A stretch of 64,000 nt of DNA from an uncultured Syntrophomonadaceae bacterium (GCA_964492615.1 CAZBKZ010000002.1:1323-65322), one strand, 5' to 3'. Positions 4,130 to 63,828 are shown, numbered from the stretch's first letter. The notes: generated by a model from the letters alone, not told the origin. Made by a program: numbers and translations.

Positions 4130-4230
4130 GGATGATCGTTATTAAACCTGTAAAATCTGCTTGCTTTATTAGCTTTTCTAATCCTGCATAATGAATAATT
4201 ATATCTGACCGCATAAACAATGAAAGGTCT

Positions 4231-4256
4231 CTGCTATGTCAATATTGACATAGCAG
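4231..4256. promoter_or_regulatory. Perfect 26-bp palindrome CTGCTATGTCAATATTGACATAGCAG. It is either an operator or a terminator hairpin.
   Basis: Perfect inverted repeat about 100 nt downstream of the modE-like stop and about 780 nt upstream of the mop start. The downstream T-tract is weak. Confidence 0.5.
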
Positions 4257-5034
4257 CTATTATATGTTTTAATTGTTACGATTATAGATGTTTATTAAAC
4301 ACCTTGTAGGGTGAACTGTTGCTTGTTGGCCTGCCTGGTATTAATTAAAGCATAAAGAAGCAATGCAATAAGCTGCGAGTAACTAAATAAAAGAACGGTC
4401 ACTGCTAAACTGTGAAACATTCGAACTTCAGTTGCTTAAGCTGTTAGCTATGAACCGGAGATTTTGTGGTGTGGGATGAAACATCTAATTCTCCCGTTTC
4501 GGAAAGGGTGTTTAGTTTGTGGCCTAATATTGTTTCGTTTCAACTTGCGAAATTATTCACATGATACTCCTGTTGAAGGTTTTTACCTTTCGCAGGAGTT
4601 CTTGTTTTTATAAGGTATTTTGCTAAATCTTAACAGGGAGATTAGATCCTCTGAAAACATATTTCACAGTTGTTGGAAATATACATCAGGTGATTGTATG
4701 CTACAAACTGTGCTTAATTGCTCTCCAGGGTAACAGCCTTCATCTTGCTGATATGGAAGTGAGTAATAAAGCCGGCCAGGATAAAAGTTGGTGAGATGGC
4801 TAATTTTGCTGACAGAATCTGGTCAGAAAATTTCAGTTGCCTTTACTCTGTGAGCATGATGTTCAGCTGTTACGTATCTGACTAAGGGCTGGTTGTTTGG
4901 AGGAGCAGCCGGTATTTTTGATTTTGATTACAGTAAAGCTGTTTGGTTTAGTCCGGTTCTTTTTCTTGGAGAGGAGGAGATTGAACAAGTTATAAAGGCG
5001 ATGCAGTCACTAATTTAGGCGAGGAGATGAAAAA

Positions 5035-7752
5035 GTGCTAAAAAAAGTTATAACGGTAAATGGATTGGAAAGAACCCTAATTGTTGAGCCGGAAAGAAGT
5101 TTGGCAAGTGTTCTCAGGGAACAGCTTTTACTGACAGGCTGTAAAGTCGGTTGCAACCAGGGTCAGTGCGGGTGCTGTTCAGTGGTTCTTGATGGCGAGG
5201 TTGTCCGTTCCTGCGTAACGAAGATGAAGCGGGTACCTGATTATGCTGAAATTTGGACCATTGAGGGGATCGGAACCGCCCAAAACCTGCATCCCTTGCA
5301 GGTGGCCTGGATGGCCTATGGTTGTGCCCAGTGTGGTTTTTGCAGTCCGGGCTTTATCATGTCGGCCAAGGTTTTACTGGAGAAGAACCCCGATCCGACC
5401 AGGGAGGAAGTTAGAGACTGGTTCCAGAAAAACCGCAATGCCTGCCGTTGTACCGGTTACAAGCCGCTTGTTGATGCAGTGATGGCGGCGGCCAAGGTTC
5501 TGCGGGGCGAAATGCACAAGGAAGAGCTGCTCTACAAACCGGTGGGCAACAAAATTTACGGCACTAATTACCACCGTCCTTCGGCGATGCAAAAAGTTAC
5601 CGGAACCTGGGACTACGGCGCCGATGTAGCCTTGCAGATGCCCTCTGACACCCTGCGTCTGGCCCTGGTGCAGGCCGAAGTTTCACATGCAAACATCAAG
5701 GGTATTGATACATCTGAAGCGGAAAAGATGCCCGGTGTTTATCAGGTTATCACCCACAAGGATGTAAAAGGTAATAACCGGATTAATGGTATGGTTACTT
5801 TCCCCTCAAACAAGGGAGATGGTTGGGATCGCCCCATCCTTTGTGATGAAAAAGTTTTTCAATACGGTGACACCATTGCCATAGTTGCCGCCGATACGGT
5901 TGAGCATGCCAGGGCGGCAGCCAAAGAAGTTAAAGTGGATCTGGAAGTTTTACCTGCCTATATGAGCGCACCGGCGGCCATGGAGTCCGATGCTATAGAG
6001 ATTCACCCTGGAACTCCAAATGTTTATTTTGAGCAGGGTGTTGAAAAGGGAGAAGACCCGAAACCCTTCATGGAGAACAGCGATCTTGTAACTGTAGAGG
6101 TTAGCACGATCTGCAGCCGTCAGCCTCATCTAATGTTGGAACCAGACTGTGGTTCTGCCTATTTTGATGAAGAAGGACGGTTAACCATCCACTCCAAGAG
6201 TATCGGTATTTACCTGCACCGCGATATGATTTACGAAGGGCTGGGCATTGAGCCAGAAAATCTACGTATTGTGGCCAATCCCACCGGCGGCACCTTTGGG
6301 TATAAATTCTGCCCCACCAACGAAGCTTTACTCGGTGTGGCATGCATGGCTACCGGAAAACCAGTCTCTCTTGTATTTGACATGCACCAGACCATTACCT
6401 ATACCGGAAAACGCTCTCCCGGCTTTGTAACTTGCAAATTGGCTGCAGATAAGGAAGGTAAACTGTTGGCGATGGAGTCAGATTGGACCATTGATCATGG
6501 CCCGTACTCAGAATTTGGAGATCTACTGACCTTGCGCCTCGCTCAGTTTATAGGGGCCGGTTATGATATCCCCAATATTAAGGGTAAAGGACGCACAGTT
6601 TGTACTAATCACGCCTGGGGAGCCCCCTTCAGAGCCTACGGCTCACCGCAGTCTTTCCTGGCTTCTGAAACGGCAATGGATGAGTTGGCGGAAAAACTGG
6701 GCATGGACCCCTTCGACCTGCGCTTTAAAAACATCTATCGTCCCGGAGCGACCACACCGTCACAGCAGGTGCCGGATGTTTACTGTTTTGAGGATATGTT
6801 TAACAAGCTTAGGCCTCACTGGGAAGAAGCGAAAAAACGCTGCAGCGACTTTAACAAACTCGGAAAAAAACGTGGTGTTGGGCTTTCCCTTGGCATTTAC
6901 GGTTGCGGCACCGACGGCCCCGATACCTCGGAAATATTTGTGGAACTGACAAAAGAAGGGGTTACCGTTGGCAGCACCTGGGAAGATCATGGGCAAGGGG
7001 CAGATATCGGCACCTTGACCCATGCCCACGAAACCTTGCGTCAGGCAGGAATCAAGCCGGAGCAGATCAGACTGGTCATGAACGATATGGCCCTTTCACC
7101 CGATAGCGGCCCCTCAGGCGGGAGCCGGCAAAACCTGGTGACCGGTAATGCACTCAGGGTTGGCAGTGAAAGACTCATTGAAGCGATGCGTAAGGAGGAC
7201 GGAACATTCCGCACCTATGACGAGATGGTTGCAGAAAATATACCGCTACGTTATGAGGGTAAGTGGACTGCAAGCATGTGCACCATGTGTGATGCTGAAA
7301 AAGGGCAGGGGGATCCTTTTGCCGGATATGTTTACGAACTCTTTATGCCCGAGGTGGAAGTTGACCTTGAATCGGGCAAGGCAAAAGTGGTTAAGTTTAC
7401 CACGGTTGTAGACTGCGGCACCATTTCGAACAAGAGTGCAGTAGACGGCCAAATCTACGGAGGGTTGGCCCAGGGCATAGGTCTGGCTCTTTCCGAGGAC
7501 TTTGACGATTTGGAAGTTCACACTAACCTCCTGAAATGCGGACTTCCCTATATTAAGGATGTTCCCGATGACATGGAGATCATTTACAATGTTGAGCCGC
7601 GCCCCCATGGGCCTTATGGCGCTTCCGGAGTCGGTGAAGGCCCGTTGACCGCACCTCACCCGGCTATACTTAACGCAATCTATAATGCCTGCGGTGTCAG
7701 GATTTATGATATTCCAGCACTCCCGGAAAAGATTAAAGCCAAGCTTAAATAA
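5035..7752 (+). CDS. mop: Molybdopterin aldehyde oxidoreductase of the D. gigas MOP type: an N-terminal plant-type [2Fe-2S] domain fused to a xanthine-dehydrogenase-family Mo-MCD domain, with no FAD domain.
   Basis: GTG start with a GAGGAG RBS. Cys motifs CNQGQCGCCS and CAQCGFCSPGF. The a/b-hammerhead and Moco-binding regions are present. 905 aa. Confidence 0.85.
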   Translation: MLKKVITVNGLERTLIVEPERSLASVLREQLLLTGCKVGCNQGQCGCCSVVLDGEVVRSCVTKMKRVPDYAEIWTIEGIGTAQNLHPLQVAWMAYGCAQCGFCSPGFIMSAKVLLEKNPDPTREEVRDWFQKNRNACRCTGYKPLVDAVMAAAKVLRGEMHKEELLYKPVGNKIYGTNYHRPSAMQKVTGTWDYGADVALQMPSDTLRLALVQAEVSHANIKGIDTSEAEKMPGVYQVITHKDVKGNNRINGMVTFPSNKGDGWDRPILCDEKVFQYGDTIAIVAADTVEHARAAAKEVKVDLEVLPAYMSAPAAMESDAIEIHPGTPNVYFEQGVEKGEDPKPFMENSDLVTVEVSTICSRQPHLMLEPDCGSAYFDEEGRLTIHSKSIGIYLHRDMIYEGLGIEPENLRIVANPTGGTFGYKFCPTNEALLGVACMATGKPVSLVFDMHQTITYTGKRSPGFVTCKLAADKEGKLLAMESDWTIDHGPYSEFGDLLTLRLAQFIGAGYDIPNIKGKGRTVCTNHAWGAPFRAYGSPQSFLASETAMDELAEKLGMDPFDLRFKNIYRPGATTPSQQVPDVYCFEDMFNKLRPHWEEAKKRCSDFNKLGKKRGVGLSLGIYGCGTDGPDTSEIFVELTKEGVTVGSTWEDHGQGADIGTLTHAHETLRQAGIKPEQIRLVMNDMALSPDSGPSGGSRQNLVTGNALRVGSERLIEAMRKEDGTFRTYDEMVAENIPLRYEGKWTASMCTMCDAEKGQGDPFAGYVYELFMPEVEVDLESGKAKVVKFTTVVDCGTISNKSAVDGQIYGGLAQGIGLALSEDFDDLEVHTNLLKCGLPYIKDVPDDMEIIYNVEPRPHGPYGASGVGEGPLTAPHPAILNAIYNACGVRIYDIPALPEKIKAKLK

Positions 7753-7782
7753 AAGGTCGGTTTTGTGGGTTCACCTTGAGGA

Positions 7783-7810
7783 GAACTGTCGTATCTTGTG
7801 GCGACAGTTC
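7783..7810 (+). promoter_or_regulatory. Stem-loop GAACTGTCG-N10-CGACAGTTC between mop and the downstream oxidoreductase gene.
   Basis: Perfect 9-bp inverted repeat. There is no U-tract, so it is either a weak terminator/attenuator or an operator. Confidence 0.35.
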
Positions 7811-7863
7811 GCTTCAACCGCTATCATCATGCAACATAGACCGATTCAAAGGGAGAGCTCAGG

Positions 7864-10210
7864 ATGGATCATAATTATTTGCACGAGGTAGAGGCTAAAT
7901 GCACACAGGATCAGCAGCCAGGATGTGTGGCAGGTTGTCCTGTCCATGTTGACATTCCAGCATTGATTGCAGCTGTAAAAAAAAGGCGATTACTCGAAAG
8001 GTTTTGCCGTATTTAGAAAACATGTACCATTTCCCGGGATCATCAGCCATATTTGCAACCAGCCCTGTCAACTATCGTGCAAAAGGTCTGAGATAGATCA
8101 TCCTGTTGCAATTAATATCATGGAGCGGGTTTGTGTGCTGACTGGGGATGGCAGTTTGTCGGAAAGGTCGGGCGCCCTGCCGGTGAAAGAACGCAACAAA
8201 AAAGCAGCTGTTATCGGAGCCGGTTTAAGCGGCCTTACTGTTGCATGGGAGTTGGTAAAAAAGGGTTACCCTGTAACCATCTTCGAGCTTTCAGAACAGC
8301 CTGGAGGAAAAATTTTAAAAGAATCTGAAGAACGAATGCCGCGTCATATTATTGAAAAAGATTTTGCCCCGCTAATCAACAACTCCATGCTTGAAACCTG
8401 TTGGGGCTCCGGGGTTGGTGTCAGCGGCGGGATGGTTAACTTTGCCGATCTCCTTGCCCGTTATGATGCCATTTACCTAGGTACAGGTTCAAACTACGCG
8501 CTTCCTGCAGGGGTGGATCTCACCTTTGATGAGCAGGGGTTCCCCAGTCATGATCCAAAAACCCTGGCAACGGCAATTGACAAGGTCTTCATCGGCGGCA
8601 GCCTAATCCTGGAGAGCGAGAAAAGATCACCCATTGAATCAGTTAGCCATGGTAAAATAGCTGCTCTTTCTATTGACCGTTTCCTGCAGGGCGTATCACT
8701 GACTGCAGGGCGCTCACGAGAAGGGGCTTATGAAACCCTACTCTATACATCACTTAAAGGCATTTCCCCTGAACCTGTATATATTGAAGATCGACCGGGA
8801 GAATTACCAAATTCGGAACAAACTTTACAGGAGGCAAATCGCTGCCTTTTATGTACCTGCCTTGAATGTGTAAAGGCCTGCCCCTACCTGGAGCATTATG
8901 GGTCATACCCGAAAAAGTATGTCAGGGAGATTCACAATAACCTGATTATCATTAAAGGTGGGCGTGGCGCAAATGAAAAGATCAATAGCTGCAGTCTCTG
9001 CGGTTTATGTGCCGAAGTTTGTCCTGGCAATTTAGACATGGGCGAGTTTTGTTTCAAAGCCCGGAAGAAGATGGTCGAGACTGGCAAAATGCCCCCTTCA
9101 GCGCACGATTTTGCCTTGCAGGATATGGCATTCAGCACAAGTGAGCTGGTTGCCCTGCATAGGCACCAACCGGGTTTTAGCAAGAGCAGGGCCCTGTTTT
9201 TTCCCGGTTGCCAGTTAAGTGCTTCATCTCCACATTATGTAGGAAGGCTTTATACTTACCTGAGGGAAAAAATTGATGGTGGAGTTGGTTTGAGTCTCAG
9301 TTGCTGCGGCGCGCCTGCCCAATGGGCGGGCAGGGAAGACCTTTTTAATGAAAATATTGATTTACTGAAAAAAAACTGGACCGCATTAGGCAACCCGGCC
9401 ATTATTACCGGCTGCCCGACCTGCTTCAGTGTTTTCAGAAAGGTGTTGCCCGATCTGGATTGTGAGACAATCTGGACAGTTCTTGACCGGGTTGGCCTGC
9501 CAGAAAACAGCGGTGCCGGGGTTAAGATGAAAAAACTGGCTGTTCACGATGCCTGCACCACAAGGTACGACAAACCTCTGCAAAATAGTATTCGTAACAT
9601 TTTACTTGCTCTTGGGCACCAGGTACAAGAGCTTGAAAACAGCCGGGAGACAACAACCTGTTGTGGTTATGGCGGTTTGATGAGTTATGTTAACCGTGAG
9701 GTTGCCCGTAAAGTGGTTGAAAAGCGTATCGCCGAAAACCCTGAAGATTACCTGGCATACTGTGCCATCTGCCGCGACCATTTTGCGGCCCGGGGCAAAA
9801 GAACTTACCACCTTCTTGATCTCATTTTTGGCAGTTCTGACCACGACCTTGCAGGCGATCAAGGCCCTGGTTTTTCAAAACGCCAGGAAAACCGCTACCG
9901 CTGCAAGAAGAGCCTCTTAAAAAAAGTCTGGGGTGAAGAGATTCAAACCAGGGAGCCTGGCTTTGAACTGGCCATCAGCGCCGCCGTGCGCAGCAGCATG
10001 GAGGAGAGGATGATTCTTACCGGTGATATAATCGAAGTGATCAGTCATGCCCGCAGCAGTGGAAATGTAATGGAAAATACTGAAACAGGGACCATGGTCG
10101 CTTACTATAAACACCGCAACGTTACCTACTGGGTTGAATTCACCGTGGAAAACGAAAGTATCTATCACATTCAAAAAGCGTACAGCCACCGCCTAGTAAT
10201 TAAGGGGTAA
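7864..10210 (+). pseudogene. GltD-like NAD(P)H:FAD oxidoreductase fused to 2x[4Fe-4S] ferredoxin and HdrD/GlpC-like 2xCCG domains. It is interrupted by a +1 frameshift in an A8 tract at 7977-7984.
   Basis: ATG 7864 has a GGGAGAG RBS and encodes MDHNYLHEVEAKCTQDQQPGCVAGCPVHVDIP, the GltD N-terminal Fe-S motif. Removing one A joins it in-frame to ICNQPCQLSC...AVIGAGLSGL and so to ORF 8120..10210. Two CCG motifs are present (SCCGAP, TCCGYGG). Confidence 0.7.
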
Positions 10211-10221
10211 AGGAGAACCAA

Positions 10222-10416
10222 ATGAGTGAAACCAGTAAAATATTATGCAGCCGCTGCGGTATTTACTTGACCATGGGCACGGTTACCCTTACCTACCTGG
10301 AGGCCAGTTTCCCGGCTGAACTTTACAAGTGCGCTAAATGCGGCCTGGTCTACATCCCCGAGGATTTGGCTCTGGGCAAGATGGCGCAGGTAGAGAAAAC
10401 ACTGGAAGACAAGTAA
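10222..10416 (+). CDS. Small zinc-ribbon protein (CxxC-N24-CxxC).
   Basis: 64 aa with an AGGAGA RBS. Two CxxC pairs. Confidence 0.6.
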   Translation: MSETSKILCSRCGIYLTMGTVTLTYLEASFPAELYKCAKCGLVYIPEDLALGKMAQVEKTLEDK

Positions 10417-10748: not shown

Positions 10749-10928
10749 ATGCATGCTAAAAATGAAATCCCACGACGCAGGAAAACCAGGTTATATATGA
10801 AAATGGTTTTATTTATTTAGTTGCCTTTGAAAACCATCAGTCCGGGAGGTATAGTTGTAACCGGTCAGTTTGATTGGTTTAATCATATTAATAAAAATGT
10901 GCTGTAATTATGGATGGAGGTATCGGTC

Positions 10929-11336
10929 ATGAATATTACAAAACGGGTAAATGAATTACTTTTACAAGGTCACTGCTGCAGCCAGATCATCATGAAAATG
11001 GGATTAGACAAAATGCAAAAAGAAAATGAAGATCTGGTAATCGCGATGAAAGGGTTGTCCCAGGGTATGTATGCCGGGACTGTCTGCGGTACTCTTTCTG
11101 CCGCTTCCTGCCTGCTCTTTCTCCTCTCAGTGAGCATGGGGCAAGATATGAGCACGGAACTGACTGGTTGGTTCGAAAAAGAGTTCGGAGTAATCGATTG
11201 TCCCGAATTGCTGGGCGATGACCCTGTTGGAGCAAGCTTGAGCCTCTGTCCGGAAATCATTCAGCGAACCTTTGCCGAAGTCCTCGAAGTAGCAGAACGT
11301 TATAATCTTTCCTGGGTGGAAATAACGAATGGGTGA
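10929..11336 (+). CDS. C_GCAxxG_C_C family putative redox-active protein.
   Basis: Cys pattern GHCCSQ / VCGTLSAASC / DCP / LCP. Start chosen at the ATG with a GGAGG RBS; the upstream ATG lies inside the RBS. Confidence 0.6.
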   Translation: MNITKRVNELLLQGHCCSQIIMKMGLDKMQKENEDLVIAMKGLSQGMYAGTVCGTLSAASCLLFLLSVSMGQDMSTELTGWFEKEFGVIDCPELLGDDPVGASLSLCPEIIQRTFAEVLEVAERYNLSWVEITNG

Positions 11337-12703: not shown

Positions 12704-12741
12704 ATTATAGGTGAGTTTTGTAGCATTTCCTTATGACATTA

Positions 12742-13009: not shown

Positions 13010-16000
13010 TTGAAACGAAGGGATTTTCTTAAACTTACCGGAGTAACTGGCGCAGGCTTGCTCCTTACCGACCTTGGGTTTAACGCAGCGCCGGTTGAAG
13101 CCGCATCTCAAACGATCAGAATTCACAATTCAGAAGAATTTTATTCTGTTTGTACTTTTTGTTCTTGCGGCTGCGGGATGATTTGTAGCGTTAAAGATGG
13201 GAAAATGATTAACCTTGAAGGTGACCCTGATCATATCGTCAGTGAGGGGGCCCTCTGCAGTAAGGGGGCAGCTATGGCGGTAATGCCCAACTCTGATCAA
13301 CGGATCAGGAACCCTCTCTACAGGGCGCCGCGCAGCAACAAGTGGGAAGAAATCAGCTGGGAAGAAGCTATCGACAAGGTTGCCAGGAAATTTGTTGAAA
13401 CCAGGGACGATTACTGGATCAGCGATGAGACTATTGACGGTACCACTTATAAGGTTAACCGCTGCGACGCAGTTAGCTTCATGGGCGGAGCTCAAAACAA
13501 TACAGAGGAATCATATCTCCTTTCTAAGATGTCGAGAATTCTGGGCGCCGTGTATGTAGAGCACCAGGCCAGGGTCTGACACAGTCCCACGGTCGCCAGT
13601 TTAGGCGCCTCATTAGGACGTGGAGCTATGACCAATCACTGGGTTGATTTAAAAAATGCCAAGGTCTTCCTGATCCAGGGTAGCAATGCTGCCGAGAATC
13701 ACCCCATGGCAGTAAAATGGATGCTGGAAGCAAAGAAAAAAGGGGCAATCATTATTCATGTCGACCCCCGTTACACCAGGACCTCATCCATTGCCGATAT
13801 TCATGCCCAGATTCGTCCGGGTGCGGATATCGCATTTCTAAATTCAATTATTAACTACATTATTACCAATAACCTTTATGATGAAGACTTTGTTATTAAC
13901 CATACCAATGCGCTATTGATTGCCAACGAAGAATTCGATTACCAGGACGGCCTTTTTTCGGGCTATAATGACGGTAAATTCAGTTACACCAACCTTTCCT
14001 GGGGTTATACCCTTGATGAAGAAAGCAAGCCTATTAAGGCGGAAAGTCTCGATGATCCTCGCTCTGTCTTCAGCAAAGCCAAGGAATTCTTCAAGCGCTA
14101 TGATTTTAAGGTGGCTTCCGATATCTGCGGGGTTCCCGAGGAAAAGATCAAGCTAATTGCCGATACCCTGGTTAACAATAAGCCTGGAACAATCTGCTAC
14201 GCCCTGGGGATGACCCAGCATACTACCGGCGTTCAGGGGATTCGTTCTTTCGGTATTCTCCAAATGCTCTTAGGGAACCTGGGCAAGCCGGGCAGCGGTG
14301 TTAACGCCATGCGTGGTGAGCCCAATGTGCAGGGAGCAACCGATATGGCCATGTTGTTCCATATCATTCCCGGGTACCTGGCTGTTCCCAACCACGATGT
14401 CGTGGATCTTGATACTTGGACTTCGCGGACCGGTACTTTTCGCCGGACTTTTATGACCAGTATTCTCAAAGCGTGGTTTGGTGACCACGCCCAACCGGAA
14501 AATGATTTTTGTTTTAATTGGTTACCGAAAAAGAACGGGCGTGAAAACTACTCACTCTTCAGGATCTTTGAGACAGCCCTTGATAAAAAGATGAAGTTTC
14601 TCTATATCATGGGTCAGAACCCCATGGTTACCAACCCTAACCTGAACCTGGTGCACGAATCACTGGGCAACCTGGATATGCTGGTTTCTGTTGACCTCTT
14701 TATGACCGAAACCGCCGCTTTCTGGGAAAAACCGGGTGTGGATCCGAGTACGCTTGATACGGAGGTAATTTTCCTCCCTGCGGCCTCTTTCCTCGAAAAA
14801 GAAGGAACCCTGGTTAATTCAGGGCGGATGGTTCAGTGGCGCTATACCGGGATTAAACCGGTCGGCAATTCAAAAACCGACCTGGAGATCATTGATTTGC
14901 TTTTTAACCGCATCCGCGAGCTTTACCAGGGTTCAAGCGACAGCAAGGATGAGCCCATTTTAAAGGCCAACTGGAACTACGAAGCAGAAGATTCTCCCTC
15001 TTTCTCAGAGGAAGTATTGAAGGAAATCAACGGTTACAATCTGGCCACCGGTGAACTCTTAAAAGGGATTGGCGAACTTAAGCCTGACGGAACCACTGCC
15101 GCGGGGAACTGGCTGTATGCCGGAATCTTCGCCAACAACCAGAACCATTCCAAGCGCAAGGATAACATTAACGATCCCGGCGGCCTTGGCATCTATCCCG
15201 GCTTTGCCTGGACCTGGCCCGGAAACTGTCACGTCTTATATAATCGTGCGTCTTGTGATGCTGAAGGTAAGCCTTATGATGAAGCCAATAAGTGTATCTG
15301 GTGGGATGAGGAAAAGGGTATGTGGACCGGGTATGACACTCCCGACGTGCCGAACAGGAACGACGGACCCGATACACCCAACGGCAAAAGACCCTTCCGG
15401 ATGGCCGGGGAAGGTCTCGCCCGTATTCTTGCCGGGCCCTACCAGGATCCCTTTGCCAATCAGCTTCTGCCCAGGGATTCATCAAGCGTCCCTGCCGACG
15501 GCCCGCTTCCGGAGCACTATGAACCCTTTGAGAGCCCTACAGAAAACGTTTTGCATCCCAACGTCCCAGTCAACCCCTGTGTTAAGTATCCCCGAATTCC
15601 GGATAAGCAGCCAATCGGTACGGCAGCGGATTACCCCTACGTTCTCTGTACATCAAGCATGGCAGAGCACTGGTGTGCCGGGACTCAAACCCGTAACATG
15701 CCCTGGTTAAACGAACTGCAGCCAGAAACATTTATTGAAATACCGAAAAACCTGGCTGCCGAAAAGGGCATCAAGAATGGTGACTGGGTAAAAGTCTGGT
15801 CTGCCCGGGGCGAAGTTGAGGCCAAGGCCCAGGTAACCCACCGTATCCATCCCCTTAAAATTAACGGCAAGGAGGTTGATGTGGTCTGGATGCCGTATAA
15901 CTGGGGATACAAGGGCCTTAGTCAGGCTGCCAGCACAAACTATGTGACTATTGATGCAGGCGATCCGAATACCTGGATCCAGGAAACAAAGTGTTGTCTG

Positions 16001-16021
16001 GTAAACCTGGATAAGGCTTAA
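13010..16021 (+). CDS. fdhA: Formate dehydrogenase catalytic (alpha) subunit. It is a selenoprotein (in-frame UGA = Sec at 13577-13579) with a Tat signal.
   Basis: Twin-arginine signal MKRRDFLKLTGV. Fe-S motif CTFCSCGCGM. Track ORFs 13010..13579 and 13628..16021 are in the same frame and are joined by HQARV-U-HSPTVASLG, the classic Sec motif. The molybdopterin domains follow. Confidence 0.9.
13591..13609 (+). ncRNA. Bacterial SECIS upper stem-loop for fdhA (cis-acting mRNA element).
   Basis: Hairpin GGUCGCC-AGUUUA-GGCGCC with a bulged U. It begins exactly 11 nt 3' of the UGA, the spacing seen in E. coli fdhF. A GU is present in the apical loop. Confidence 0.55.
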
Positions 16022-16142: not shown

Positions 16143-17021
16143 ATGAGCAACCAGGAATGGAGCAGCTTTGATAAATGGCTTAAAGAGCATCCTTATTTAA
16201 ATGAAATAGGAAGCTTCCACAGAGTTTTGTCAAAAGCTATTGAGGGTTTTGATAAAGAGCAATTCAGTAAAGATTTGCCGGTATCTGACTTAGAAGAAAT
16301 AAAGCAGGGATACAGTAAGGGTGTACCCTTGCTCAGCTCTTTAACGGAGATCAATATGGTTACTGGAATAGCAGGCAGCCTGTTTAAAAAAATAGTTAAT
16401 GCTCTGCTTGAGGCCGATTTACCTTCTAAAACGCTAGAACAGGTTAAAGCCCTTAGAGGTTATATTGAAAAGGTTCCTGATCTTCCAAGAAGGTTAATAA
16501 GGCTGGTTATTAAGGGCAGTAGTGATTCGAAACCTGAAGAGCTTGAATCTGTTTTTAACGATGTAAACGAAGGGTTTGTTAATTTTCTGGCCTGGTCCTC
16601 CTTATCTGCAATCCTTGAGCCTTTGAGAGAAGTAACTGGTGAGTTGCTGGAAGAGAAACCCTGGAGGAAGGGTTACTGTCCTTTGTGTGGGCATTTGCCG
16701 GCGATGGGCCAGCTAATAAGAACAAAAAGAGGGCGGGAACGGGAATTGATCTGCGGATGCTGCAAAATGAAATGGACCTATCGGCGCATTGGCTGTCCCT
16801 ACTGCGGAAACGAAAATGTCAATACGCTGAAACTGATTGAATTTGTTGAAATGCCCGAAATGCGCCTGGATACATGTGAAGAGTGCAAGGCTTATGTAAA
16901 GACATACATAAATCAGGGTAATGAACAGGTTGCCCTCGCAGATTGGTCTACCTTACACCTTGATCTTATCGGAAAAAATAAAGGATTTCAGAGGGTTGAT
17001 GAGTTTTTCTATGAACTTTAA
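16143..17021 (+). CDS. fdhE: Formate dehydrogenase accessory protein FdhE.
   Basis: Four CxxC pairs (CPLCGH, CGCC, CPYCGN, CEEC), typical of FdhE. Confidence 0.85.
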   Translation: MSNQEWSSFDKWLKEHPYLNEIGSFHRVLSKAIEGFDKEQFSKDLPVSDLEEIKQGYSKGVPLLSSLTEINMVTGIAGSLFKKIVNALLEADLPSKTLEQVKALRGYIEKVPDLPRRLIRLVIKGSSDSKPEELESVFNDVNEGFVNFLAWSSLSAILEPLREVTGELLEEKPWRKGYCPLCGHLPAMGQLIRTKRGRERELICGCCKMKWTYRRIGCPYCGNENVNTLKLIEFVEMPEMRLDTCEECKAYVKTYINQGNEQVALADWSTLHLDLIGKNKGFQRVDEFFYEL

Positions 17022-18210
17022 TCAAAATATATATTTGGATAATGCTGCTACTGGCTTTCCTAGGCCTGCAATCGTAACCGATTCAGTTAGTTGCTGGATG
17101 CTCGAAGAAGGCGGTTCTCCCGGTCGCGGTCATCATTTTCTGTCTCGCCGGGCCGGTGATCAGGTGTCAAAGATTCGCCGGCAGGTAGCCCGTTTTTTTG
17201 GGGTTAATGAAGAGTTCAGGGTTGCTTTTACCTTTGGTGCAACTGATGCATTGAACATGGCGATTAAAGGAATCCTGCGAAAGGACGATCACGTTATTAT
17301 CTCTGGAATGGAGCATAATTCTGTACTACGGCCTCTGCGCCATCTGGAAGCTGAAGGTTTAATCAGTATTGATGTTATATCCTGTAATGAAGAAGGCTAT
17401 CTGGTTGAAAATTTAATTTGGGAAGCCTTTCATGAAAAAACAAAATTAATAGTTATTAACCACGCTTCAAATGTAACAGGCAGTATACAGGCTGTTGCTG
17501 AGATAGGGGCGGAAATCCGTCGTCGGGGAGCATATTTGCTGCTTGATGCAGCCCAGTCAACTGGAAATATTCCGATCAAAATTGGTGAACTGAATGCTGA
17601 TATGATAGTTTTTGCCGGGCACAAGGGGCTTTTTGCCCTCCCTGGGGTAGGCGGTATGATTATTGGTGAGCGGATCAATCAACTAAATACATGGCGACAG
17701 GGAGGAACCGGCTATAATTCAAAATCGGAGACTCAGCCACTTAATTGGCCGGAAGCATTTGAAGCCGGAACAATGAATATGCCAGGTATAATATCACTTG
17801 GTAAAGGGATAGAATATATTGAGGAACAAGGCCTGGAAGCAATTGCAAGCCAGAAGATGGCTCATCTAAAATACCTGTGGGATACCTTATCGGAAATTGA
17901 AGGAATAAAGTTATACGGACCTAATCCGGAAAAGCCCAGGGTAGCGGTTCTCTCATTAAATATAACAGACTGGGAACCTGACGATGTTGCAGAAATATTG
18001 CAGCATAACTATAAGGTTCAGGTTCGTTCCGGGCTGCACTGTGCGCCGCTGGCCCATAATACCCTGGGTACAATGCCCAATGGTTCAGTCAGAATCAGTC
18101 CCGGGTATTTTACTAAGCAGGAAGACCTGGATACGGTTGTGCAGGCGATTAAGAATATGGCTTTAAGCAGAGTCGGCTGGAATCTTTTCAATGAAGCCCC
18201 GGCTAATTAA
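17011..18210 (+). CDS. Class-V aminotransferase: a group-II cysteine desulfurase or selenocysteine lyase (SufS/CsdA-like).
   Basis: PLP-binding Lys in FAGHKGL. Active-site RSGLHCAPLAH. Overlaps the fdhE 3' end. Alternative ATG at 16999. Confidence 0.8.
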   Translation: MNFNQNIYLDNAATGFPRPAIVTDSVSCWMLEEGGSPGRGHHFLSRRAGDQVSKIRRQVARFFGVNEEFRVAFTFGATDALNMAIKGILRKDDHVIISGMEHNSVLRPLRHLEAEGLISIDVISCNEEGYLVENLIWEAFHEKTKLIVINHASNVTGSIQAVAEIGAEIRRRGAYLLLDAAQSTGNIPIKIGELNADMIVFAGHKGLFALPGVGGMIIGERINQLNTWRQGGTGYNSKSETQPLNWPEAFEAGTMNMPGIISLGKGIEYIEEQGLEAIASQKMAHLKYLWDTLSEIEGIKLYGPNPEKPRVAVLSLNITDWEPDDVAEILQHNYKVQVRSGLHCAPLAHNTLGTMPNGSVRISPGYFTKQEDLDTVVQAIKNMALSRVGWNLFNEAPAN

Positions 18211-18345: not shown

Positions 18346-19713
18346 GTGACATTAACATTTGATAGAGGGGTATTTCTGCCCCATTATAAGGAATCAACTG
18401 AAAATGAGCCTATAGAATCAATTTCTATGCCGGAAGAGATTGTAATGCCAATGAGTCAGCATGTCGGGGCACCATGTAACCCTACCGTCAGCGTTGGCGA
18501 TCAAGTGAATATTGGGCAGAAAATCGGAGAAAGCCTTACCATGATTAGCGCGCCAATTCATTCAAGTGTGGATGGTGTTGTAACATCTATCGAACTGCGA
18601 CCATATTTTACCGGAAGTAAGGTTAACAGTGTTGTTATCAAGCCTGATGAAAATCAAAGTGATTTTAATAAAAAGGAAAATGATATCGGTAAGTTGGATC
18701 GGGAAAAAATTGTAGAGATGATCAAAGAAGCGGGAATTGTAGGTATGGGAGGAGCTGCCTTCCCTACCCATGTTAAGCTGAACCCGCCAAAAGAGATTGA
18801 CCGGGTTATTATTAACGCCTGTGAATGTGAACCTTACTTAACATGCGATCATAGGATGCTTGTCGAGATGACTGAAAAGTGTGTAGAAGGAGCTAAAATA
18901 ATTGCAAAAGTTGTCGGGGCTCGTCAGATAATATTTGGCATTGAAACCAACAAGCCTGATGCGGCAGAAAAAATTAGCAGCACTATTTTTAAGGATGATG
19001 ATATTTCCGTTGCTATGCTCGATGTTAAGTACCCGCAGGGCGCCGAGAAACAGTTAATAAAAGCAACGGTTAATCGTGAAGTTCCACCCGGGAAGCTACC
19101 TTTTGAGGTAGGGGTTGTTGTTCACAATGTAGCTACCTGTATTGCCATCTATGAAGCAGTCCGGTATGAAAAGCCTCTTTATGAGAGAGTTTTAACTGTT
19201 ACTGGCGACGGAATTGCCAAATCTGCAAATGTTAAAGCCCTGATTGGCACACCAATTGGACATATTATCCATGAGTGTGGAGGGTTTAAAGGTATTGTCA
19301 GTGGTGAAGTGAAAATTGATACCAGCGATGTCCGTTATCCTGTATATGCTCCGCCGGAAGCCAAGGCCAAGGTTATTATGGGTGGACCCATGACCGGTTT
19401 TGCCCAGCAGAGCCTTGATGTCCCTATAGTGAAAGGGACGGGAGGCATCCTGATCTTCACTCCGGAGATGATTAATGCCAGTGAATACCTGGCCTGTGTT
19501 CGCTGTTCCAACTGTGTTCAGCACTGCCCGATGGGGCTTTATCCAAACTATATAGGGACATATGCCGAAACAGGACGCTACAACCATTCAATCGATTGGG
19601 GAGCTTTAGATTGCTTTGAGTGTGGTGTCTGTGTGTATGTTTGCCCATCGAACAGGCCCATCGTCAGGTTTGTCAGGGAAGTGAAACAGTTTGCGGCGCG
19701 AAAAGCGGATTAA
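18346..19713 (+). CDS. RnfC-like Fe-S flavoprotein (RnfC_N barrel, NuoF-like nucleotide/FMN fold, 2x[4Fe-4S]).
   Basis: PMSQHVGAPCNPTVSVGDQV (RnfC N-terminus). GMGGAAFPTHVKL. CVRCSNCVQHCP and CFECGVCVYVCP. GTG start. Confidence 0.75.
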   Translation: MTLTFDRGVFLPHYKESTENEPIESISMPEEIVMPMSQHVGAPCNPTVSVGDQVNIGQKIGESLTMISAPIHSSVDGVVTSIELRPYFTGSKVNSVVIKPDENQSDFNKKENDIGKLDREKIVEMIKEAGIVGMGGAAFPTHVKLNPPKEIDRVIINACECEPYLTCDHRMLVEMTEKCVEGAKIIAKVVGARQIIFGIETNKPDAAEKISSTIFKDDDISVAMLDVKYPQGAEKQLIKATVNREVPPGKLPFEVGVVVHNVATCIAIYEAVRYEKPLYERVLTVTGDGIAKSANVKALIGTPIGHIIHECGGFKGIVSGEVKIDTSDVRYPVYAPPEAKAKVIMGGPMTGFAQQSLDVPIVKGTGGILIFTPEMINASEYLACVRCSNCVQHCPMGLYPNYIGTYAETGRYNHSIDWGALDCFECGVCVYVCPSNRPIVRFVREVKQFAARKAD

Positions 19714-61965: not shown

Positions 61966-63828
61966 ATGGGAAAAGTTGTAGGAATCGATTTGGGCACAAC
62001 AAACTCTGTCATAGCTGCGTTAATTGGCAGCGAGCCTGAAATTATTGCCAACGCCGAGGGTAGCAGGCTGACCCCCTCTGTAGTGGCATTTACCAAGGAT
62101 AACCAGCGCCTGGTCGGCCAGGTTGCCAAGCGGCAGGCCATTACAAATCCGGATCGCACCATCGCCTCGATTAAAAGAGAAATGGGTACCAGTCATAAAG
62201 TAAAAATTGATGATAAAGAATATACACCCCAGGAAATATCAGCAATGGTTCTGCAGAAACTTAAAGCTGACGCGGAGGCTTTTCTCGGGGAAAAAATAAC
62301 CCAGGCTGTTATTACTGTGCCTGCATATTTCACTGACAGTCAGCGCCAGGCCACCAAAGATGCAGGCACGATTGCCGGGCTTGAGGTGTTAAGGATTATC
62401 AATGAACCGACAGCGGCTGCCCTGGCCTATGGTCTTGATAAAAAGGGCGATCACAAAATTCTTGTTTTCGACCTCGGCGGAGGTACTTTTGATGTTTCAG
62501 TCCTTGAACTGGGCGATGATGTCGTGGAAGTTAAAGCAACCAGCGGTAACAATCGCCTGGGCGGAGATGATTTTGACCAGCGTGTAGTAGACTACGTTGC
62601 CGAAGAATTCAAGAAAGATCAGGGTATAGATTTGCGTACAGACCGCATGGCCCTCCAACGCTTAAGCGAAGCAGCTGAAAAAGCAAAAGTAGAGTTGTCG
62701 TCGGTAACCAGCACCGATATCAACCTGCCTTTCATCACTGCATCGCAGGATGGTCCGAAACACCTTAACGTGACCCTGACCAGGGCAAAATTTGACGAAC
62801 TGACGGCAGACCTGGTTGAGAAAACAATGGAACCGACCAGGCAGGCCATGAAAGATGCAGGGTTGAGTACTGAAGAAATAGACAGGATCATTCTTGTAGG
62901 TGGTTCAACGCGTATCCCGGCTGTACAGGATGCCATTCGTAAACTGCTGGGTAAAGAGCCTCACAAGGGTGTTAACCCCGATGAGGTTGTGGCCATGGGT
63001 GCTGCATACCAGGCTGCCGTATTAAGTGGTGAAGCCAAAGATGTTTTGCTGCTTGATGTTACCCCACTTTCCCTTGGTATCGAAACCCTGGGTGGTGTAT
63101 TCACCAAAATCATCGATCGCAACACCACCATCCCTACTGAGAAAAAACAGATTTTTTCAACCGCTGCTGATAATCAGACCAGTGTTGAAATTCATATTCT
63201 GCAGGGAGAAAGGGCTATGGCTGCTGACAACAAGACGATGGGGCGGTTTATGCTTGATGGTATCCCCCCGGCTCCACGCGGCGTTCCGCAGATTGAAGTT
63301 AGTTTTAATATTGATGCTAACGGTATTGTTAATGTTTTAGCTAAGGATCTGGCTACTAATCGTGAGCAAAAAATAACGATTACTGCTTCCAGCGGCCTGG
63401 AAAAAGACCAGATTGATGAAATGGTTAATGATGCGGAAAAGCATGCTGAAGATGACCGCAAGAGAAAAGAACTGGCCGAAGCCCGCAACCAGGGTGACAC
63501 CCTGGCATACAGCGCTGAAAAAGCCCTCAAGGATTTAGGTGATAAGGTGGATGAGGCCAAGGCTGAAGAAGTTAAGAAGGCAATTGAAGAATTGCGTGAG
63601 GCAGCCAAGGGAGAAGACCTTGAGCAGATCAAGGCTGCTACAGAAAAAATGAATAGTTTTATGCACGAGCTGTCATCCAAGCTTTACGAACAAGCTAAAA
63701 GTGAGCAGGCTGGAGCAGAAGAAGCCGGGAGTGATAATACTGCCGGTGGTAGCGACGATGAAGCTGAAAATGTTGTAGATGCAGATTATGACGTCCAGGA
63801 TGAAGAAGAAGAGCAAAAAGAAGAATAG
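61966..63828 (+). CDS. dnaK: Molecular chaperone DnaK (Hsp70).
   Basis: [17 protein letters not shown], and an acidic C-terminus. Confidence 0.95.

Follow-up and report, generated by a model that had tools for sequence, protein, structure and literature searches.

Runs of a single base that set or break a reading frame are known from several kinds of gene. In the contingency loci of host-adapted pathogens a polymorphism in tract length switches an open reading frame on or off, and the genes concerned are typically of the surface or restriction-modification class. Elsewhere, a run of A lies at the point where the single open reading frame (ORF) of relatives changes frame, as in tssM1 of Citrobacter rodentium (A11) and in dnaX of Thermus and certain IS elements (A9/A8), and slippage on the run can restore the frame (PMC4256274, PMC1088944). 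Comparative genomics puts the usual slippage threshold at nine A or T (PMC1088944); in E. coli reporters, none of the poly(A) runs examined was detectably rescued by deletion through the host RNA polymerase (PMC6260861); and robust ribosome sliding is seen only at A11, while A9-A10 show little (PMC4363877). In +1 frameshifting of the prfB type and of the Ty1 (CUU-AGG-C) type it is the P-site tRNA that re-pairs in the new frame.

The gene described here lies in a window of 64 kb (64,000 nucleotides, the whole stretch of DNA that was analysed) and is divided by a run of eight A. It would encode a member of the NF045663 family, found in gene clusters of the DVU_1553-DVU_1559 type; a literature search for a biochemical or functional study of the family or of the DVU1553-1559 cluster found none. 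Our preferred reading, which we hold to be probable, is that the run is a young A7 to A8 frameshift polymorphism in a conserved, single-ORF redox gene whose intact parent allele still segregates in the population beside the broken one.

Reading frames and the restored protein

The tract, read directly from the window, consists of the bases AAAAAAAA. From ATG 7864 the zero frame proceeds as GCT GTA AAA AAA AGG CGA and reaches a TAG at 8014-8016; the resulting ORF comprises 40 native residues, including C13, C21 and C25, followed by ten out-of-frame residues (RRLLERFCRI), and has been called by a gene caller on one Logan contig (L049, 414-566; P0124). With one A deleted, the sequence becomes ...AAVKKGDYSKGFAVFRKHVPFPGIISHICNQPCQLSCKR... 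and no stop intervenes before the downstream ORF, giving 781 aa in all; read in the +1 frame, the stretch that starts at the A-run and passes through ATG 8120 meets no stop until the one ending at 10210. A GGAG motif at 8122-8125 stands 9 nt ahead of GTG 8135, and ATG 8120 is without an obvious Shine-Dalgarno sequence. The sequence and its translation thus bear out an earlier note on this DNA, which had placed an A8 run at 7977-7984, given the peptide strings around it, found the frame from ATG 7864 to close after 50 codons (the stop ends at 8016) and proposed that deleting a single A joins the N-terminal segment to ORF 8120..10210. This break is the sole disrupted long ORF seen at a homopolymer within the 64 kb; the remaining coding A/T runs of at least eight bases in the window are all in frame.

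Table 1. Features of the interrupted gene and its immediate surroundings, in window coordinates.
Feature	Position	Strand	Details
Molybdopterin-dependent aldehyde oxidoreductase, upstream partner, intact	5035..7752	+	905 aa; NF045668, 1609.9 bits
GGGAG, Shine-Dalgarno-like	7851..7855	+	read directly; 8 nt upstream of ATG 7864
Whole gene as read with A7	7864..10210	+	781-aa NF045663-family Fe-S flavoprotein
ORF open in the A8 allele	7864..8016	+	50 aa, ends TAG
A8 tract, one-base insertion site	7977..7984	+	intact allele A7: GTA AAA AAA GGC, V-K-K-G
Orphaned +1-frame segment	7985..8119	+	residues 41-85 of the full protein; without its own start codon
Downstream ORF	8120..10210	+	696 aa from ATG 8120, 691 aa from GTG 8135 (call of JGI and others)
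DVU_1557-family small redox protein (DUF7479)	10222..10416	+	Pfam, NF045645; 12 nt after the stop
Haplotype-marking SNP	12721	.	T in the window and A8 contigs; C in both A7 contigs

That the restored ORF is more than chance follows from its match to NCBIfam NF045663 ('pyridine nucleotide-disulfide oxidoreductase/dicluster-binding protein', model name diclust_near_Sec), which extends over residues 3-780 and covers positions 2-758 of the 759 in the model, with a score of 957.8 bits where the cut-off is 530. The score belongs to the translation with one A deleted; the A8 DNA as it stands encodes fragments only. Among the top 120 homologues, 119 span at least 98% (98-100%) of the restored protein, and the sole short one is the window gene's own 691-aa truncated call. 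The domain order is Fer4_20, Rossmann, Fer4_17, two CCG domains and then a conserved C-terminal domain, with Pfam matches at residues 11-90, 113-158, 326-391 and 444-524 and a second CCG stretch. The principal claim of the earlier note, that an extra A splits one GltD-like/HdrD-like fusion gene, holds.

The Fer4_20 match at residues 11-90 spans the break, and in an alignment of 18 sequences invariant cysteines fall on both sides of it: three precede it (C13, C21, C25) and three follow (C64, C68, C72), the latter encoded within 7985-8119. One cluster-binding domain is therefore cut in two by the frameshift. A designed two-gene arrangement is not credible.

Alleles, orthologues and the surrounding locus

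The A8 tract recurs across assemblies. Records of the 691-aa truncated product come from 9 JGI and 18 NCBI/Logan/ENA contigs, and A8 is present in all nine contigs that were read directly (L001-L004 and L045-L049, from JGI, ENA and Logan assemblies), which are 99.97-100% identical to the window; these collections may re-assemble the same read sets, making independent samples fewer than contigs, and all allele assignments are the assembly consensus on contigs. IMG samples 3300033169-78 derive from an anaerobic digester in Wageningen (PMC10159854, table). Four other homopolymers of 8-9 bases (at 9368, 10728, 12790 and 12907) are invariant across all compared contigs. One of them, at 9368-9375 (+), is a second A8 run in the same gene, in frame (CTG AAA AAA AAC) in every contig, and might be regarded as another potential slippage hotspot that has stayed unmutated.

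A look-up by exact sequence retrieved the restored 781-aa protein itself from a public collection (P0121), where it is encoded on two contigs, L043 (ENA ERZ27252305 k141_60005) and L044 (JGI 3300033175 Ga0334890_1008648), sample 3300033175 being part of the same digester series as the A8 samples. Both contigs carry A7, and over the 10.9 kb and 7.2 kb compared with the window they differ from it by one missing A and the SNP at 12721, and by nothing else. Along the whole gene the A7 and A8 alleles show no amino-acid differences, and neither secondary stops nor secondary indels are present. The population therefore contains a frame-switching tract polymorphism on a near-identical genome, A8 in nine contigs and A7 in two. 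Among the A8 contigs, three extend across both sites (L001, L003 and L045) and have T at 12721, and A7 has been seen only with 12721C; a further contig that starts at 8401, downstream of the tract (L050), has T. Two near-identical haplotypes thus co-exist, an intact one (A7 with 12721C) and a frameshifted one (A8 with 12721T). Most assemblies of the series have A8 as their consensus, and one sample, possibly two, has A7. Other microdiversity in this near-clonal population consists of G>A at 7128 (L002 and L047) and G>A at 6565 (L046); a C>A at 10843 lies 5 nt from the end of contig L048 and is possibly an end artefact.

The closest orthologues are 79% and 76% identical to the restored protein. 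At the tract one of them (L005) reads ATT AAA AAG GGC, an A5 run, and the other (L006) ATA AAA AAA CAG, an A7 run; both are in frame within a single ORF. That note had also set against its own reading the combination of A8 confirmed by independent reads and two separate genes in orthologues; A8 is indeed borne out by independent assemblies, but in the orthologues a single gene occupies the position. In more distant orthologues the run of A at this site is three or shorter. With the closest orthologues in frame and the distant runs this short, the in-frame A7 is ancestral in this lineage and A8 a derived one-base insertion. The insertion is young. Values of dN/dS between the window gene and the orthologues are 0.13 and 0.11, against 0.124 between the two intact orthologues, and branch lengths relative to L005 and L006 give no acceleration in the window lineage; as a test for relaxed selection, these comparisons are uninformative beyond 'recent'. 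Scans of metagenome and genome contigs with the restored protein, for closer species with which to date the insertion, gave only relatives of 46% identity or less, and the scan of GTDB species-representative genomes gave no orthologue of the frameshifted gene above 45%.

The neighbourhood is that of the NF045663 family, with a molybdopterin aldehyde oxidoreductase and a DVU_1557-family protein adjoining the gene, and the order of these three genes (aldehyde oxidoreductase, Fe-S flavoprotein, DVU_1557-family protein) is kept in the two closest relatives, L005 and L006. The gene at 10222..10416 is probably co-transcribed with the frameshifted gene. It is followed by a 99-aa gene, a gene for a C_GCAxxG_C_C protein and a DVU_1553-family CoA ligase. 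The C_GCAxxG_C_C protein (10914-11336, +) scores 95 bits against NF045669 (the DVU_1555 family), below the 103-bit cut-off. The model name diclust_near_Sec hints at a selenoprotein link, and no selenoprotein was identified within this cluster; the TGA stop of the 99-aa gene was considered as a concealed selenocysteine codon and set aside, the read-through being short and unremarkable.

Several departures from the related loci were observed around the gene. Just 5' of the aldehyde oxidoreductase, 4866-5030 (+) encodes a C-terminal remnant of some 55 residues of a class-V aminotransferase, at 39-40% identity, and the rest of the gap of about 900 bp (4130-5034) has no ORF longer than 50 aa; the counterpart in L005 and L006 holds an intact aminotransferase gene of 379-386 aa and a DsrC-like gene, and the latter has no match anywhere in the 64-kb window. 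The 4130-5034 locus has undergone truncation or rearrangement. Between the 99-aa and C_GCAxxG_C_C genes the relatives carry a SAM methyltransferase of 233-252 aa (L005 7985-8686, L006 7895-8653), and in the window this gene is absent and just a 165-bp gap is left (10749-10913). The aminotransferase remnant and the missing DsrC-like and methyltransferase genes may be read as further signs of erosion of the locus relative to L005 and L006.

Further downstream, the formate dehydrogenase alpha subunit (13010-16021, +) appears split into ORFs of 189 aa and 797 aa by an in-frame TGA at 13577-13579; the context is the classical EHQARV-U-HSPTVASLG, and this TGA is therefore a selenocysteine codon and not a frameshift. 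An FdhE-like ORF (16143-17021, +) runs some 100 nt past the start listed for a cysteine desulfurase/SclA-like selenocysteine lyase ORF (16921-18210, +), whose family match begins only at residue 37, and the true start of the latter is therefore probably later. An RnfC gene follows at 18346. The DnaK encoded at 61966-63828 (+) has its best named relatives, labelled 'MAG: Bacillota bacterium', at 88-90% identity, and another relative reaches 95%.

Origin and consequences of the A8 allele

In explaining the interrupted gene we need to account both for the wide recurrence of A8 and for the existence of an intact copy. Homopolymers are classic sites of error, and one sample does assemble as A7, which might suggest that A7 is true everywhere and that A8 is a fault of sequencing or assembly. 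This reading, one of those raised in the earlier note, is rejected, and we give it very little probability: A8 stands in nine of nine contigs from three assembly sources and several samples, and the A7 contigs bear a distinct linked SNP that marks them as a different haplotype and not a corrected version. The other A8, T8 and T9 runs are all in frame and invariant, and a systematic homopolymer artefact is therefore very unlikely. No more credible is a functional two-gene layout, in which a small N-terminal Fe-S peptide would act beside a separate 691-696-aa enzyme. The GGAG ahead of GTG 8135 and the readiness of gene callers to call the 691-aa protein could be taken in its favour, but there are no split homologues among the top 120, the 50-aa ORF ends in ten out-of-frame residues, and the 45 codons between the two ORFs, which would go untranslated, hold three invariant cysteines of the same domain. 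A third possibility is that full-length protein is made from A8 DNA by functional recoding, either because RNA polymerase drops one A (or adds two) or because the ribosome shifts +1 as tRNA-Lys moves from AAA to AAA and continues with GGC. On A AAA AAA A the tRNA-Lys would re-pair perfectly in the +1 frame, giving V-K-K-G-D-Y; the broken allele is the dominant one; poly-A-interrupted genes rescued by slippage are known, such as tssM1 with its A11 (PMC4256274); and some IS elements appear to use A8 productively, and human apoB yields about a tenth of full-length product from an A8 (PMC1088944). Yet a run of eight lies under the usual slippage threshold of nine (PMC1088944, PMC6260861), a figure that is indicative only, as polymerases vary by species. 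The tract site is not conserved in orthologues, and an intact allele co-exists. Of the six arginine codons, the AGG of the A site is used most often (25.8% of Arg, 11.7 per thousand) and is not a hungry codon, and a hungry-codon +1 frameshift (AAA-AGG) is accordingly ruled out by codon usage. The 20 nt upstream of the tract contain no GGAGG-like Shine-Dalgarno motif, the RNA on either side shows no excess of folding stability over shuffled sequence (z = +1.5 downstream, -0.23 upstream), and an Rfam search of the whole 64-kb window gave no match. The programmed +1 frameshift suggested in the earlier note, lacking a conserved site, a slow A-site codon and a stimulator, and with an intact allele alongside, is thus unsupported, and functional recoding in any form is distinctly improbable. 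Some full-length protein, about 1% or less, could plausibly leak through incidentally, as a by-product and not by a programmed mechanism.

The main rival is phase variation, a minority possibility with weak support: elevated-rate replication slippage would make the tract a contingency switch, ON at A7 and OFF at A8, used by the population. Both tract lengths do occur within one near-clonal population and one sample series, and the alleles are otherwise identical within the gene. The tract is, however, short (7-8 bases) and unconserved, being A5 in one of the two closest orthologues and at most three in distant ones; nearby runs of equal or greater length are invariant; and the product is a cytoplasmic redox enzyme, outside the class typical of contingency loci. 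A7 occurs with a SNP 4.7 kb away that is absent from all three A8 contigs covering 12721, and although the sample is small, this linkage of tract length to the SNP is better fitted by two stable haplotypes than by rapid switching. We therefore think it unlikely that A7/A8 constitutes a heritable, reversible switch or a slippage-dependent attenuator of an aldehyde-oxidoreductase-linked enzyme in a free-living digester Firmicute. Were it to do so, the OFF or low state would be the one favoured under most reactor conditions, and core redox metabolism, in place of surface structures, would be the target of phase variation or recoding.

A young frameshift polymorphism remains the reading that best fits the whole of these observations. 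The earlier note had listed recent pseudogenisation among its possibilities, and this, or at least a hypomorphic frameshift allele, is the best supported, P0121 being identical to the restored ORF residue for residue; the ORF is disrupted when set against the intact orthologues and the intact allele of its own species, as in a null allele. We propose that, in a near-clonal population of an uncultured Bacillota bacterium sampled through an anaerobic-digester series, the A7 tract (GTA AAA AAA GGC) gained one A, probably by slipped-strand mispairing during replication. On the A8 allele, ribosomes starting at ATG 7864 would terminate after 50 codons and leave untranslated the next 45, with their three invariant cluster-binding cysteines. 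Normal synthesis of the full-length enzyme would be lost, and the splitting of the cysteine ligands would imply loss or strong reduction of function. Two residual products may be envisaged: a small amount of full-length protein leaking through incidental slippage of RNA polymerase or ribosome, and a 691-696-aa protein without the N-terminal Fe-S domain, initiated internally at ATG 8120 or GTG 8135. A scan of 7600-8300 for an internal promoter found none. The stretch of untranslated mRNA may, through polarity, also lower the expression of the tightly spaced downstream genes.

The predominance of the broken allele suggests that the NF045663 enzyme is dispensable in the digester, or costly or otherwise disadvantageous there; alternatively, the dominance of A8 could be tolerated since some full-length protein is still made, or could reflect adaptive switching. 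This gives a slight hint as to what an uncharacterised, widespread gene cluster associated with aldehyde oxidoreductase may do. For annotation, the public calls of 50 aa and 691 aa should be seen as fragments of one gene, for which P0121 supplies the intact sequence. The event is of a known kind and of modest ecological interest, and opens no new mechanism, but it offers a clean case from nature of a homopolymer frameshift found at a stage when both alleles still segregate in a bioreactor population.

Comparison with known systems

By sequence, the N-terminal third of the restored protein resembles the Fe-S and flavin modules of NfnB, GltD and dihydropyrimidine dehydrogenase, for which structures have been solved, and the neighbouring genes match the sister models of the DVU_1553-DVU_1559-type cluster (aldehyde oxidoreductase, DVU_1557-family protein and DVU_1553-family CoA ligase). 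What sets the window copy apart from the NF045663 family is its interruption by a frameshift at codon 40/41, together with the absence or reduction to a remnant of the upstream DsrC-like and aminotransferase genes and the downstream methyltransferase gene of the nearest relatives.

The interruption itself has likenesses to each of the three systems with which we began, and differs from each. With tssM1, dnaX and the IS elements it shares an A-run at the point where the relatives' single ORF changes frame, and slippage could in principle restore that frame here as well (PMC4256274, PMC1088944); however, the run has only eight bases, a one-base deletion and not an insertion is needed, the run is unconserved, and an uninterrupted allele co-exists. 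As in +1 frameshifting of the prfB and Ty1 types, the P-site tRNA could re-pair, and AGG is the zero-frame A-site codon, but AGG is the commonest arginine codon here, and neither an upstream Shine-Dalgarno-like stimulator nor conservation accompanies it. There is also a resemblance to the contingency loci of host-adapted pathogens, in which a polymorphism like that between A7 and A8 likewise switches an ORF on and off; yet the present tract is short and lineage-specific, it lies in a metabolic enzyme, and its length is linked, in the few contigs that bear on the question, to a flanking SNP.
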